Shown here: in pieces, positions 16,493 through 33,403 of the stretch
How the letters are laid out: every line of letters begins with the position of its first letter
How positions within the stretch are numbered: position 1 is the first letter of the stretch
From: an uncultured Planctomycetaceae bacterium
Lineage (GTDB): Bacteria; Planctomycetota; Planctomycetia; Pirellulales; PALSA-1355
Length of the DNA stretch: 64,000 nucleotides
Direction of reading: 5' to 3'
NCBI GenBank assembly: GCA_963715755.1
Contig: OY970273.1
Coordinates: 6,121,797 to 6,185,796 of the forward strand
The notes under the pieces: model-generated
Told to the model about the DNA's origin: nothing
Seen by the model: only the letters and a program-made list of their open reading frames with translations
Database searches by the model: none
Position numbers and translations under genes: made by a program

Positions 16493-16560
16493 CCCTCCTC
16501 GTTCCCTACTCTCTACCCTCTACCCCCCACGCTCTACTCCCTAATTCCTACTCCCTTGCC
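16493..16560. repeat. C/T-rich tract (purine-rich on the clpP sense strand) directly after the clpP stop; contains a 16-mer shared with 32993-33008
   Basis: CTACTCTCTACCCTCT at 16506-16521 is identical to 32993-33008. Read on the minus strand, the tract is GGGAGTAG / GGTAGAGGGTAGAGAGTAGGGAAC repeats. Confidence 0.7.
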
Positions 16561-29496: not shown

Positions 29497-31195
29497 TTAG
29501 CGCCGCGAAAGGAACTCGGTCGAGTTGACCAGGGCCCAGAGAATATCCTCGAACGCGGCGACCCGATCGTTCGTTGCGGTGATGTATGCTCGGCAGATGT
29601 CGATTTCGCTCGGCTTCGGCTCGCGGGCGAGGCTGCGCAGATACAGCTCGACCAGCACGCTCCGATCGTCGCTCGACGCCCGGAGCAGGCGGCCGAGCAT
29701 CGTATCGGGGTTCTGGCCGCGCAAGGCCCGGCTGAGCGGTCCGGCGTTCATCATCCACAAGGCCTGCGGGATCGAGCCGGCCACCTCGTCGCGGCGCACG
29801 CTGGGGTCATAGCCGAACGTGCGGAGCACCGCGCCGCGCGGTCCGGCCAGTCCCAGCCGGGCGGGGCCTTCGGGCTCGGGCCGTTGCAACGAGTTTTCGT
29901 CGATGTCCAGCGCGTCGCAAATCACATTGAACAGTTGATCCGCCCGCAGACGCTGCGGCCGATTGGCGGCCAGCGGCGCGCCGCCGTCGCCCTGCCGCGA
30001 ACGGCTTTCGCGCTGGTAAGCGGCCGTGGCCGTGATCGTGCGGAGCAGCCACTTGATGTCGTAGCCGGTGGCGATGAAGCCGGAGGACAGGGCCTCGAAC
30101 GTGTGCGGGGCGATCGGCTGGCGGTCGGGTCCCAGGTCGTCGACCGGCTCGAAGAACCCATGGCCCACCAGCTCCGACCAGAGCCGATTGACCAGCGCCT
30201 TGGCGAACCAGGGATTCGCCTCGCTGGTGATCCAGCCGGCCAGCTGCTCGCGCCGCGCGCGGTCGTCCAGCCCCGGGCTTTGGGCTTGCCCGGTGACGAA
30301 AAACACCGGCTTCATCTCTTGGCCCGGCGCCTCGGGATGATTGAGGTCCGGCATGAAGTGCTCGAGCGTTGCTTCTTCGGGCTGGCCGGCCACGCGCTTT
30401 TGCCGCGCTCGGTCGAGCGACACCACGGCCAGGCTGCGCGGATCGCCGGGGGTGCCGGGCCTCAGCCCGATGCGGGGAAAGAAGGCCGCCAGCTCGTGAA
30501 ACTGCTCGCGCTTCCAGCGATCGGTCGGATGGTCGTGGCACTGAGCGCATTGGATCTGGATGCCGAGCAGAATCCGCGACATCTCGGCCGTCGTGTCCGA
30601 CGGGTCGGCCATCTGCGCCAGGATGATCGCCGTGCTTCCCTCTTCGCTGACCGCGCCGCCGGCCGTGACGAACTTGCGCGATCTGGTCCCAGGGCACGTT
30701 GCGGTTGAACGAATCGGTCAGCCAGTTCGTCAGCGCCGGTGCGACGAGCAGCGCCCGGTCTTCCTTGCGGCGGGACAATATCACGTCGCGCCAATACCGG
30801 GCCCAGTTGTGCCCGTATTGTTCGTTGGCCAGGAGCCGGTCGACTTCGGCGCGGCGCTTGTCGGGCGACGGATCGAGCGCAAAGGCAATCACCCGCTCCG
30901 GCGGCGGCAACTCGCCCACCAGATCGAGCGACACGCGGCGCAAGAACGTGACATCGTCGACCACGGCTGCCGGCTCAGAGGCCGTGCTGGCGGGCGCCGC
31001 CGGATCGCCGCCGTAGGCTTCGGCCGCGAGCTGTGCGTCGATTTCGGCCGCGACGGCCGCCGGCTCCGGTGCGGCCACGGCCCGTCGCGCGCCGCCGCCG
31101 AGCGCAATGGCCAGTCCCAGTGAAAGTGCCAGGCTCCAGGCGACCAGCGCCCGGCAGCCCGGGCTTCGCCGAACGGAAGCGAATCGATTCGACAT
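29497..31195 (-). pseudogene. DUF1549/DUF1553 domain protein, reading frame broken near 30673-30682; frameshift or assembly indel
   Basis: ORF 29807..31195 gives a signal peptide and DUF1549 (DDVTFLRRVSLDLVGELPPPE...YGHNWARYWRDVIL...NRNVPWDQIA) before turning to junk. ORF 29497..30612 continues the same protein (…ILLGIQIQCAQCHDHPTDRWKREQF..., DUF1549 end plus DUF1553). The two join as ...WDQIA(R)KFVTAGGAVSEEGSTAIILAQMADP if one base is removed, or two added, in atcGCGCaag. Confidence 0.8.
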
Positions 31196-31766
31196 GGCCG
31201 GTCCGTTTTTCGTGGATGAGCAAGCTGCGTCTAGGAGCAGCTGCGAATTTTCAGTGGTCCAGCTGTCGGCAGGAATTCATTTCCTTTGGCCGCAGGCGAC
31301 CCCGGCGCGGCTCGAGCCGCCGGCGCGATTATTGTAGCCGCCCATTGAACCCCTCGGCGCCCGCGGAGGTTTCGCGGCCGGGGGGCTTTTTTCCAGGTTC
31401 GGGGCCGACAAATGGCCCAGAAGGCGGGAAATCTCGCGGCAGCGGGACTGGGCGGACCCGCCGCGGGCCGGGGTTTGCCGGCCGCCGGCCACCCGGGCGG
31501 CAATTTCGTTAGCGGCCGAACAGGCGGCAAAGTCGCTCTGGGCGACGGGTGTTTTGGCCACTTTAGCGCCGTAAAGTCCGATTTCGCTCGACCCGGCCGG
31601 CCCGCTTGGCGCATCCTTGAGCAAAGGGGGCTGCCGGCCGGCTGCCCTCCTTTTCTTCTCTTATCCTGCCCACATCGAGCGGGCAACAGCCAGCCGGGGA
31701 AGCTGTCGGGGCGGCGCGGCGCGCCGGCCGCCGGTGGCGCACCTGGCCCGTAGCGATTCAAGCGGC

Positions 31767-32876
31767 ATGACGCGCGTCGTCGAAATCAACGATCTCGAGA
31801 CCTTGGGCAGCTATCGTCTGCTCTGGAACATGCTGCTCGCGCAAACGCCCGGCGCCAGCTTTTTCCATTCGCTCGATTGGCTCGAAGTCTATTGGCGGCA
31901 CATGGCGGGCGATCAGCGTCTGCGCGTGCTGGTGATCCATGCGGCGGGCGAGCCCGTGGGCATTCTGCCGTTAGTGGTCCGGCGCGAGCCGATGCGGCTG
32001 GGCAGCGTGCGCGTGCTGACGTATCCGCTGCACGACTGGGGTTCGTTCTATGGGCCGATCGGGCCGAATCCCACCGCCACGCTGATCGCCGGACTCGGAC
32101 ACGTGCGCCGCACCCGAGCCGATTGGGATTTGATCGACTTGCGCTGGGTCGACGCCGCCCGCGACGCGGGGCGCACGCCCCGGGCGCTGGGCATGAAGCG
32201 CTTTACGGCCCAAGGCGCCCAGTGGGGCCAAAGCGCGCAAATCGAAATCCAGGGCGGCTGGGACGATTACCTCGCCGGCCGCAAGCGGAAGTTCCGCGAA
32301 AATCTGCGCCGCGCCGAGCGGCAACTGGCCGCCCGCGGTCAGGTCAGCTACGTGCGCTGGCGCCCCCAGGGAACCGCCTGGGGCGACGACGATCCGCGCT
32401 GGGACCTGTACGACGCGTGCGAGCGCCTGGCCGCCGACAGCTGGCAGGGGAGTTCGCAATCCGGCACCACGCTTTCGCACGAGTCGGTGCGCCAGATGCT
32501 GCGCGATGCCCACGTGGCGGCGGTGCGGGCCGGCTCGGCAGATGTCAATTTGCTGCTCGTCGACGGCGAGCCCGTGGCGTTCGCCTATGGCTATCAATAC
32601 GCCGGGTACGTGTTCGGGCTGCGCACCGGATACGACGCCAGCCAGGCCAGCGAAGGTGCCGGGACGGTGCTGTTCGCCCGGCAGATTCGCGATTCGTTCG
32701 AGCGCGGCGACCGGATCTTCGATCTGGGTTCGGAGTACCTGGATTGCAAGCGGCACTGGGTCACGCGGCTCGCGCCGAGCAACCATTACACGTATTTTCG
32801 GCCCGGAACCATTCGGGGGCAGGTGCTGCGGCTCAAGCGCTGGCTGGCCGGCGTGCATCATCGCCGCACGGCGTGA
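31767..32876 (+). CDS. GNAT-family acetyltransferase, CelD/BioF2-like (Acetyltransf_6-type)
   Basis: Taken from ORF 31617..32876. I place the start at ATG 31767 (MTRVVEINDLETLGSYRLLWNMLLAQTPGASFFHSLDWLEVYW...). The ~370-aa architecture and the ...KRKFRENLRRAERQL... segment are typical of CelD/FemAB-like GNAT proteins. Confidence 0.7.
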   Translation: MTRVVEINDLETLGSYRLLWNMLLAQTPGASFFHSLDWLEVYWRHMAGDQRLRVLVIHAAGEPVGILPLVVRREPMRLGSVRVLTYPLHDWGSFYGPIGPNPTATLIAGLGHVRRTRADWDLIDLRWVDAARDAGRTPRALGMKRFTAQGAQWGQSAQIEIQGGWDDYLAGRKRKFRENLRRAERQLAARGQVSYVRWRPQGTAWGDDDPRWDLYDACERLAADSWQGSSQSGTTLSHESVRQMLRDAHVAAVRAGSADVNLLLVDGEPVAFAYGYQYAGYVFGLRTGYDASQASEGAGTVLFARQIRDSFERGDRIFDLGSEYLDCKRHWVTRLAPSNHYTYFRPGTIRGQVLRLKRWLAGVHHRRTA

Positions 32877-32879
32877 GCG

Positions 32880-32970
32880 GAAGGCAGAAGGCGGAAGGCA
32901 GAAGGCAGAAGGATGAAGGCGGAAGGATGAAGGATGAAGGATGAAGGATGAAGGCAGAAGGATGAAGGCC
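32880..32970. repeat. 13 x 7-bp microsatellite GAAGGNN, directly after the GNAT stop codon
   Basis: The units read gaaggca gaaggcg gaaggca gaaggca gaaggat gaaggcg gaaggat gaaggat gaaggat gaaggat gaaggca gaaggat gaaggcc. A C/T-rich tract follows at 32975-33020. Confidence 0.9.
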
Positions 32971-33022
32971 GCCGAGCGTTCTTCTCTATCCTCTACTCTC
33001 TACCCTCTCAACCCCTCCCGCA

Positions 33023-33403
33023 TCAGTCCTGCTCGACGCTCTTCGAGGATCGCGACTTTTTGGAAAAGTGCGGTCCGCTCAATTCGGCGCGCTGCGTCGG
33101 GCGGCCGTGTCCGCCGCCCAACAGCCGATAGAAGAACAGGATCAAGAAGGCGCCGGCCGTGCCGACGACGAAGCCCATCGGGCTCATCGGCGAGATCCGC
33201 TGTCCGCCGGTGCAGTACATCAGCACGCTGCAGCCCATGAACGTGCCGGCGATGCCCATCATCAAGGTGGCGATGGCGCCGCCGGGATCGCGTCCCGGCA
33301 TGATGGCTTTGGCCAGCAGGCCCACGACGGTGCCGAAGCCGACCCAAGTCAGAAAGTGGTGCAGCCATTCTTGCACCGGAGCGGAAAAATTCACGTCGAG
33401 CAT
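33023..33403 (-). CDS. GlsB/YeaQ/YmgE family stress-response membrane protein
   Basis: Taken from ORF 33023..33511. I place the start at ATG 33403 (MLDVNFSAPVQEWLHHFLTWVGFGTVVGLLAKAIMPGRDPGGAIATLMMGIAGTFMG...). The transglycosylase-associated motif (G.lak.l.pg.dpgG...t...Gi.Ga..G) is present. Confidence 0.8.
   Translation of the reverse strand: MLDVNFSAPVQEWLHHFLTWVGFGTVVGLLAKAIMPGRDPGGAIATLMMGIAGTFMGCSVLMYCTGGQRISPMSPMGFVVGTAGAFLILFFYRLLGGGHGRPTQRAELSGPHFSKKSRSSKSVEQD

Follow-up and report, generated by a model that had tools for sequence, protein, structure and literature searches.

A GAAGGNN array in a convergent planctomycete spacer, probably one copy of a genus-level heptamer repeat family with replication-polarized length

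Results

Two convergent genes separated by a heptamer array and a C/T-rich tract

The spacer described here lies between two converging genes in a window of 64,000 nucleotides (the whole stretch of DNA that was analysed). The plus-strand gene, located at 31767 to 32876 by the open reading frame (ORF) list and by a crude gene call, matches PF13480 (E = 3.8e-23) and encodes a GNAT/FemAB-like acetyltransferase, in agreement with the GNAT label used in a preliminary description of this DNA. Three nucleotides (gcg) separate its TGA stop codon (32874 to 32876) from an array of 13 GAAGGNN units on the plus strand (32880 to 32970), which in the window sequence runs without interruptions and in which the variable dinucleotides are, in order, CA, CG, CA, CA, AT, CG, AT, AT, AT, AT, CA, AT, and CC. 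Tandem Repeats Finder assigned a period of 7 and 12.9 copies to this array. The 13 heptamers that the preliminary description had placed after the GNAT stop were recovered as perfect units, and the start given there (32877) comprises the array plus the 3-nt gap. The array is 85% purine and contains 8 GGA, 6 AAGGA, and 6 TGA motifs; its purine-rich strand, the plus strand, is the inferred leading strand.

In the window sequence, a joint of 7 nt (gccgagc; 32971 to 32977; no strand) separates this purine arm from a pyrimidine arm, the C/T-rich tract at 32978 to 33019 (42 nt; C+T, 86%). The tract was described as ending 3 nt before the stop of the opposite gene, and indeed the triplet gca lies between it and TCA (33023 to 33025), the stop codon of the minus-strand ORF. 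This second gene (33023 to 33403, minus strand; the real start is possibly internal, near 33298) encodes a small membrane protein that is Transgly_assoc or YeaQ-like in sub-threshold matches only, the best being PF04226 (E = 0.0014) and NF007771 (E = 3e-5), and it is at this sub-threshold level that the earlier "glsB-family" label finds support. Read on the minus strand, the C/T-rich tract consists of degenerate, purine-rich GAGRGTA-type heptamers that begin 3 nt past the stop of the membrane protein gene and form a short partner arm; as judged from its sequence, we assign it to a second heptamer family, GAGRGTA. Each of the converging genes is, in its own sense, followed directly by a heptamer tract, which bears out the proposal that purine-rich tracts lie downstream of both.

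Within the C/T-rich tract, Tandem Repeats Finder detected CTCTACC (3.6 copies; 32984 to 33008). A 16-mer of the tract, CTACTCTCTACCCTCT, occurs four times in the genome, including at window position 16506, and is shared with a C/T-rich heptamer array at 16493 to 16560 (CTACCCT; 4.6 copies), which belongs to the GAGRGTA family on its purine strand and whose purine strand lies 49 nt past a stop codon. A further C/T-rich tract of 30 nt (31642 to 31672) precedes the GNAT start codon by about 95 nt, so that the GNAT gene has a pyrimidine tract on its upstream side and the purine array on its downstream side. Profile matches also identified DUF1501, DUF1549, and DUF1553 genes near the locus, a gene content suggestive of a planctomycete; one DUF1549 (PSCyt2)/DUF1553 (PSD1) gene, at 29497 to 31195, seems to be split across two frames near position 30600, which could be due to a frameshift, a pseudogene, or a sequencing error.

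A three-unit pattern, GAAGGNNGAAGGNNGAAGG, had 11 matches in the window versus 0.01 expected from shuffles, and a four-unit pattern had 202 matches genome-wide versus 0 for the same pattern reversed, which served as control. The shuffle expectation and the reversed-pattern count together exclude a chance origin.

GAAGGNN arrays form a genome-wide family that follows placement rules

The genome consists of a single contig (C1) of 7.08 Mb with 65.7% G+C. We called genes with our own crude caller, which scores codon log-odds after training on long ORFs and yielded 5,029 genes (76% coding) with reliable stop codons and uncertain start codons, and collected arrays with a regular expression at a cutoff of at least three GAAGGNN units. 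This census, proposed in the preliminary description, returned 95 arrays distributed evenly over the strands (47 versus 48), whose positions relative to gene ends were recorded. The perfect 7-nt phasing that had been thought unusual for a noncoding spacer is therefore commonplace in this genome. By the crude gene calls, 85 of the 95 arrays were intergenic, and with Tandem Repeats Finder about 130 period-7 arrays of the AAGGNNG type were detected, by far the commonest heptamers. The arrays constitute an overrepresented intergenic heptameric simple-sequence repeat (SSR) family in the sense of PMC4692102, i.e., dispersed tandem heptamers with a conserved core.

Solitary arrays had the 5' end of the purine strand nearer to a gene in 43 cases and the 3' end in 15 (P = 3e-4), with median distances to the gene of 28 nt on the 5' side and 116 nt on the 3' side. 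Where two arrays shared a spacer, the order was purine then pyrimidine in all 12 cases and the opposite in none. Likewise, a pyrimidine window (at least 24 of 28 nt) was present within 200 nt on the 3' side of 41 of the 95 arrays and on the 5' side of 0 of the 95, with a background of 0.4%. All 24 arrays in convergent spacers adjoined a stop codon, namely that of the gene whose sense strand carries the purine repeat. In tandem spacers no transcription bias was observed (31 purine-sense versus 32 pyrimidine-sense arrays); here, purine-sense arrays were located near the upstream stop and pyrimidine-sense arrays toward the downstream start.

Array-bearing spacers were tandem in 49, convergent in 19, and divergent in 4 cases, whereas 43, 8, and 20, respectively, were expected by length (P = 1e-6); the expectation for divergent spacers lay between 12 and 20. 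When tract boundaries were tested independently of the gene caller, the enrichment of stop or CAT triplets there was only about 2-fold. Other purine-rich tracts in the genome (n = 79) followed the same proximity rule (59 versus 20), and a general purine richness after stop codons was not found genome-wide. The spacer at our locus shows the standard architecture of the family, with a joint that lies at the short extreme of the cores of the 41 purine-then-pyrimidine units of the genome.

At C1:912680-913030, several GAAGGNN-type arrays and degenerate purine-rich repeats occupy about 250 nt ahead of a minus-strand tRNA-like sequence. A small RNA considered at C1:912.8 kb was rejected, as the site is a multiarray region between a gene and the tRNA-like sequence.

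Array length follows the direction of replication

From cumulative GC skew, the origin was located near 6.02 Mb and the terminus near 2.615 Mb, which divides the genome into replichores of 3.68 and 3.41 Mb. Two DnaA-family genes are present, one near the skew minimum (C1:6065987-6066442; weaker score) and one at C1:1505071-1505520 (better score). GAAGG was on the leading strand in 18 of 18 arrays of 9 or more units, 12 of 13 arrays of 6 to 8 units, 16 of 25 arrays of 4 to 5 units, and 12 of 39 arrays of 3 units. For arrays of 6 or more units, this amounts to 30 of 31 (P = 5e-9 versus 3-unit arrays, Fisher test), and the one array with GAAGG on the lagging strand belongs to a pair as its short arm. 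Pairs whose arms differed in length had the longer arm on the leading strand in 8 of 8 cases. Since only 50% of the genes are co-oriented with replication, gene orientation cannot account for the strand bias of the arrays. The non-GAAGG purine tracts had no leading-strand bias (36 of 79). In a congener (genome G001), the rule was reproduced only weakly: 7 of 10 arrays of 5 or more units agreed with the local 120-kb GC skew, a measure that corresponds to the replichore in only 84% of cases in the present genome.

The array at the locus fits this rule: it has 13 units on the plus strand, lies about 135 kb rightward of the GC-skew origin, and has a short, degenerate partner on the opposite strand. 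Replication direction, and not the two flanking genes, appears to determine its length. Long arrays mix CA, CG, and AT units in the 5' third and contain mostly AT units in the middle and 3' thirds, a contrast that suggests recent growth toward the 3' end. The new element in these results is a length-dependent, almost absolute replication-strand bias in a closed genome.

Arrays turn over rapidly between congeners and are patchy across the order

The GNAT orthologues of two congeners are 85% (G003) and 81% (G002) identical at the amino acid level. The orthologous spacers measure 33 nt in G003 and 17 nt in G002 and are repeat-free, and the locus in G001 is array-free as well. According to the preliminary description, a repeat unique to this locus and variable or absent in close relatives, with no transcript end nearby, would indicate neutral slippage only. 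The outcome was split: the repeat is not unique to the locus, yet it is absent from the orthologous spacer in 3 of 3 congeners.

When arrays of G001 were mapped onto the present genome, 3 of 20 orthologous spacers held an array and 2 more held degenerate traces. This proportion is well above the approximately 2% of spacers that hold arrays and indicates some persistence or recurrence. Flanking genes of the two genomes share about 80% DNA identity, and the spacers are mostly unalignable; to judge from these alignments, the positional turnover of arrays is fast. The absence from the spacers of the three congeners, together with this fast turnover, points away from a device specific to the gene pair.

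The purine-then-pyrimidine rule also holds in G001 (9 versus 0 of 26 arrays). In a genome from another family of the order (G037), arrays abut gene ends, and a pyrimidine partner was found for 2 of 20. At loci L217 to L235 of this genome, the GAAGGNN arrays are followed by (A/C)AACTGA-type heptamers, not by CCTTC arrays. Across the order, arrays were patchy, being present in the whole genus (3 of 3 congeners), in one other genus of the family, and in a few other families, with near 0 matches to the reversed-pattern control across the sampled genomes. Among the matches listed for bacterial species genomes, arrays of 6 or more units occurred in cyanobacteria, Pirellulales, Verrucomicrobiota, Acidobacteriota, and others, and GAAGGNN arrays were present in many of the cyanobacterial genomes in that list. 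A literature search found neither the 14-mer GAAGGATGAAGGAT or its complement nor a link between heptamer repeats and Planctomycetes.

The spacer can fold but lacks the signature of a terminator

As RNA, the spacer was predicted to adopt a minimum free energy (MFE) fold with a long imperfect stem of -39 to -52 kcal/mol, built from GAAGG/CUCU-type pairs with many mismatches, and for the array alone (91 nt) almost no structure was predicted (-5.6 kcal/mol). The hairpin proposed earlier stands to the extent that the two halves pair; its stability did not exceed that of dinucleotide shuffles for either strand (z = +2.0 and +0.1). Little basis was found for the triplex-forming potential proposed along with it, since the tracts are impure and form no pure purine/pyrimidine mirror repeats. 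ViennaRNA with the G-quadruplex option predicted no quadruplex in the spacer fold, a scan of 32877 to 33022 for a hairpin plus U tract gave no site, a scan of the spacer for promoter-like sites found none, and an Rfam search of the spacer at E values up to 1 gave no match. The spacer thus has no GC-rich stem-loop followed by a U tract, the configuration of an intrinsic (Rho-independent) terminator.

We considered whether the purine array and the pyrimidine tract could be a selected, shared 3'-end element, i.e., a bidirectional stem-loop that terminates or stabilizes both transcripts and has replaced a small GC hairpin of the relatives. The enrichment of arrays in convergent spacers and their depletion in divergent spacers would suit such an element, and the fixed purine-then-pyrimidine order is reminiscent of the A tract and U tract of bidirectional intrinsic terminators. 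Furthermore, the spacer forms a long stem (see above), GC-rich hairpins occur within many cores, and the short spacers of the relatives can form a hairpin across both stops. The latter hairpins are small and of no special stability, however, and the congeners do without the element at this locus. The fold itself is not above shuffles and is not accompanied by a hairpin-plus-U-tract site, and the variable dinucleotides of the arms mismatch each other. The cores between the arms are unique sequences of 6 to 154 nt, many of them hairpin-free, and a central terminator hairpin as a universal core was rejected because the cores are too variable. In addition, most G037 arrays lack a pyrimidine partner, and arm length tracks the direction of replication and not the gene context. 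Taken together, we regard a selected 3'-end element as unlikely.

Shine-Dalgarno-like motifs and CsrA

The preliminary description had pointed to Shine-Dalgarno mimics in the array, and at the sequence level these are real: AAGGA and AAGGAG are complementary to the 3' tail of the 16S rRNA of this genome (...CACCUCCUUUC). This tail is canonical and carries CCUCCUUU, so that both motifs are true Shine-Dalgarno complements by sequence. The transcribed array might accordingly act as a binding platform, for ribosomes through these mimics or for proteins of the CsrA family, and work from within the 3' untranslated region (UTR) as a sponge or regulator. The GGA and AAGGA motifs in a run predicted to be essentially unstructured on its own would suit this role, as would the position of long arrays, which are mostly purine-sense and directly past stop codons. 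The AAGGAUG of the array, moreover, fits the CsrA site core A(R)GGAUG (SELEX; CsrB consensus). CsrA (PF02599) is represented by 9 paralogues in this genome (e.g., at C1:2716011, 4447115, and 775777), and the CsrA family of the order is unusually large.

However, 2 to 17 CsrA genes were present per genome in 41 of 41 sampled genomes of the order, most of which are array-free. CsrA, being found in all 41 genomes with or without arrays, shows no co-occurrence with them, and the CsrA link was rejected as evidence because copy number is independent of arrays. GAAGGCA, the second commonest unit, does not contain GGA, and approximately one-third of the arrays would be transcribed in the pyrimidine sense. 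Neither an Rfam match nor an independent promoter or terminator was found for the spacer, and its GGA motifs lie in an unstructured run, which sets it apart from sponges of the CsrB/RsmZ type, small RNAs with genes of their own that display GGA in hairpin loops. Finally, heptamer families that obey the same placement rules can be unlike Shine-Dalgarno sites (GGGAATC; PMC4692102). A role as an RNA-binding platform is thus very improbable in our view.

Comparison with mobile elements

Units composed of inverted arms around a core and dispersed in intergenic DNA could also be small mobile elements, similar to miniature inverted-repeat transposable elements (MITEs) or REPINs, with the heptamer arrays as inverted ends moved by a transposase. 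The whole spacer at our locus is unlike that of the congeners, as would be seen after an insertion, and Y1 transposases are encoded in the genome. The cores, however, are unique and share no mutual similarity, in contrast to the common internal sequence of a MITE, and comparison of filled and empty sites revealed no target site duplication. REP and REPIN sequences are conserved palindromic units that also flank a Y1 (RAYT) transposase gene; none of the five Y1_Tnp matches had a GAAGG array within 1.5 kb, nor was an array found within 1.5 kb of any reverse transcriptase gene. Arm lengths, moreover, step by 7 nt and track the direction of replication. The mobile-element explanation is largely refuted by these observations.

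Two of the Y1 transposase (IS200/RAYT-like) genes, C1:43315-43772 and C1:346699-347290, are flanked by a purine-rich sequence, GAGGAAAAGGGGA(CAT), with 7 copies genome-wide. Judging by sequence, this repeat and the Y1 genes may form a small REP/RAYT system separate from the GAAGGNN arrays.

Discussion

The repeat class to which the GAAGGNN family belongs has already been described in other bacteria, and the family adds to it a replication-polarized length. Rehm et al. (2015; PMC4692102) reported GGGAATC repeats in Xanthomonas and GGGGAYT repeats in Nostoc/Anabaena, with approximately 100 to 190 arrays per genome, of which about 90% are intergenic. Those repeats lie next to ORFs in any orientation, on average 28 nt from the 5' neighbouring ORF and 160 nt from the downstream one, and occupy the coding strand past stops and the noncoding strand ahead of starts; many form convergent inverted pairs, few lie between divergent ORFs, and their length differs among close species. 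The GAAGGNN arrays share with them the tandem units with a conserved core and variable last positions, the approximate number of arrays, the 5' end near an ORF (28 versus 160 nt there, 28 versus 116 nt here), the strand occupied past stops and ahead of starts, the intergenic bias, the convergent inverted pairs, the underrepresentation in divergent spacers, and the variation in length among close species. In contrast to the Xanthomonas pair, conservation of position between congeners is much lower here (3 of 20). Furthermore, array counts in that study revealed no preference for the leading or lagging strand, whereas in the present genome almost all long arrays have GAAGG on the leading strand. 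The same study cites work in which heptamers were found to be overrepresented among bacterial repeats and polymerase slippage was suggested, and it leaves the function of the heptamer repeats unexplained.

For the G-rich heptamers of Xanthomonas a role of non-B DNA structure was proposed (PMC4692102), and the GAAGGNN array might likewise modulate replication or transcription as a DNA-level structure, be it a two-tetrad G-quadruplex with an i-motif, H-DNA, or slipped DNA. In favour of this, the arrays obey the placement rules of the G-quadruplex-forming GGGAATC repeats (PMC4692102), and the replication-strand bias implies that a single-stranded DNA intermediate matters. The present units contain GG instead of GGG or GGGG, however, so that the quadruplex interpretation of the published repeats does not carry over, in keeping with the ViennaRNA prediction, and the strands are too impure to be purine/pyrimidine mirror repeats. 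That the same placement rule holds for a motif unlikely to adopt this structure argues against the quadruplex as the defining feature of the class: G tracts of GGG or longer are a mark of the published subfamily and not of the placement rules. We consider a non-B structure as the basis of the array highly improbable.

Heptamers of similar arrangement have reportedly been known since Mazel et al. (1990) as the short tandemly repeated repetitive (STRR) sequences of the cyanobacteria Calothrix and Anabaena, which Rehm et al. also cite. Like these, the GAAGGNN arrays are dispersed intergenic heptanucleotide arrays, often capable of forming a hairpin between genes; they differ in phylum and in unit, and STRR sequences are usually homogeneous, whereas CA, CG, and AT units are mixed here. 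The experiments of Kang et al. (1995) are likewise said to have shown that the instability of triplet repeats in Escherichia coli plasmids depends on orientation relative to replication. As with the cloned triplets, gain or loss of units would depend on the repeat strand that serves as lagging-strand template; unlike in those experiments, our observation concerns the lengths at which natural heptamer arrays stand throughout a genome.

The intergenic TAACTGA direct repeats of Beggiatoaceae, cyanobacteria, and Bacteroidetes (MacGregor, 2015; PMC4679880) resemble the GAAGGNN arrays in being abundant intergenic heptamers whose orientation is strongly tied to start and stop codons and whose distribution over lineages is patchy. 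A further likeness is that one strand carries stops in all frames, so that the arrays can overlap gene ends only. They differ from GAAGGNN in that they point mainly to start codons, are A/T-rich, and have an unrelated motif; the (A/C)AACTGA arrays in G037 are reminiscent of them (PMC4679880).

In our assessment, with a probability of about three in four, the tract at the locus is one copy of a genus-level, genome-wide, purine-rich GAAGGNN SSR family that is driven by slippage and is near-neutral at this site. The strand bias and the order of the units suggest that arrays arise and grow by replication slippage. Growth would be strongly favoured when GAAGG is on the leading strand, i.e., when the GAAGG strand is the lagging-strand template, and new units, mostly GAAGGAT, would be added toward the 3' inner end of the array. 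By their distribution, arrays are retained chiefly in spacers bordered by a gene 3' end on one or both sides, with selection as the putative cause, and they lie in the purine sense right past stop codons and in the pyrimidine sense toward the far side of the spacer. As a result of these placements, two arms in one spacer always read purine array, core, pyrimidine tract.

At the locus itself, an ancestral spacer (17 to 33 nt in congeners) would have given way to two arms, one of 13 units on the leading strand after the GNAT gene and a short, degenerate one after the small membrane protein gene. The array is presumably tolerated in this spacer, which is convergent and promoter-free. Beyond the features of the sequence itself, the functional proposals of the preliminary description gained no support. 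For both flanking genes the element is probably near-neutral; at most, it would give both 3' UTRs a long imperfect stem-loop and a Shine-Dalgarno-like purine stretch in common.

Slippage alone falls short in two respects. It accounts neither for the purine 5' end that faces the nearest gene nor for the occurrence of two arms per spacer, which is far commoner than independent origin predicts; a structural or functional constraint or a special mode of origin would be needed in addition. Fixed polarity and the co-occurrence of two arms are common to distant bacteria. The polarity seen in Xanthomonas, Nostoc, and this planctomycete and the relation between length and replication could be the outcome of one strand-specific process that builds heptamer palindromes in promoter-free spacers, and not of ordinary symmetric slippage followed by selection. 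Candidate processes could be the addition of repeats to 3' ends while breaks or gaps are repaired behind the fork, or R-loop-driven expansion in untranslated purine-rich RNA. We hold such a common process to be distinctly unlikely, if conceivable.

For the two genes at the locus, the array would be of little importance, the repeat being a recent, lineage-specific filler of their spacer. With regard to heptamer repeat families, which are overrepresented in many bacteria and still, since the 1990s, without an accepted explanation, our results extend the published placement rules to a motif that is unlikely to fold into a G-quadruplex, which weakens the quadruplex explanation. Array length in this genome is almost perfectly predicted by the direction of replication, which makes the slippage mechanism directly testable, and long GAAGGNN arrays may serve as markers of replication direction in related genomes.
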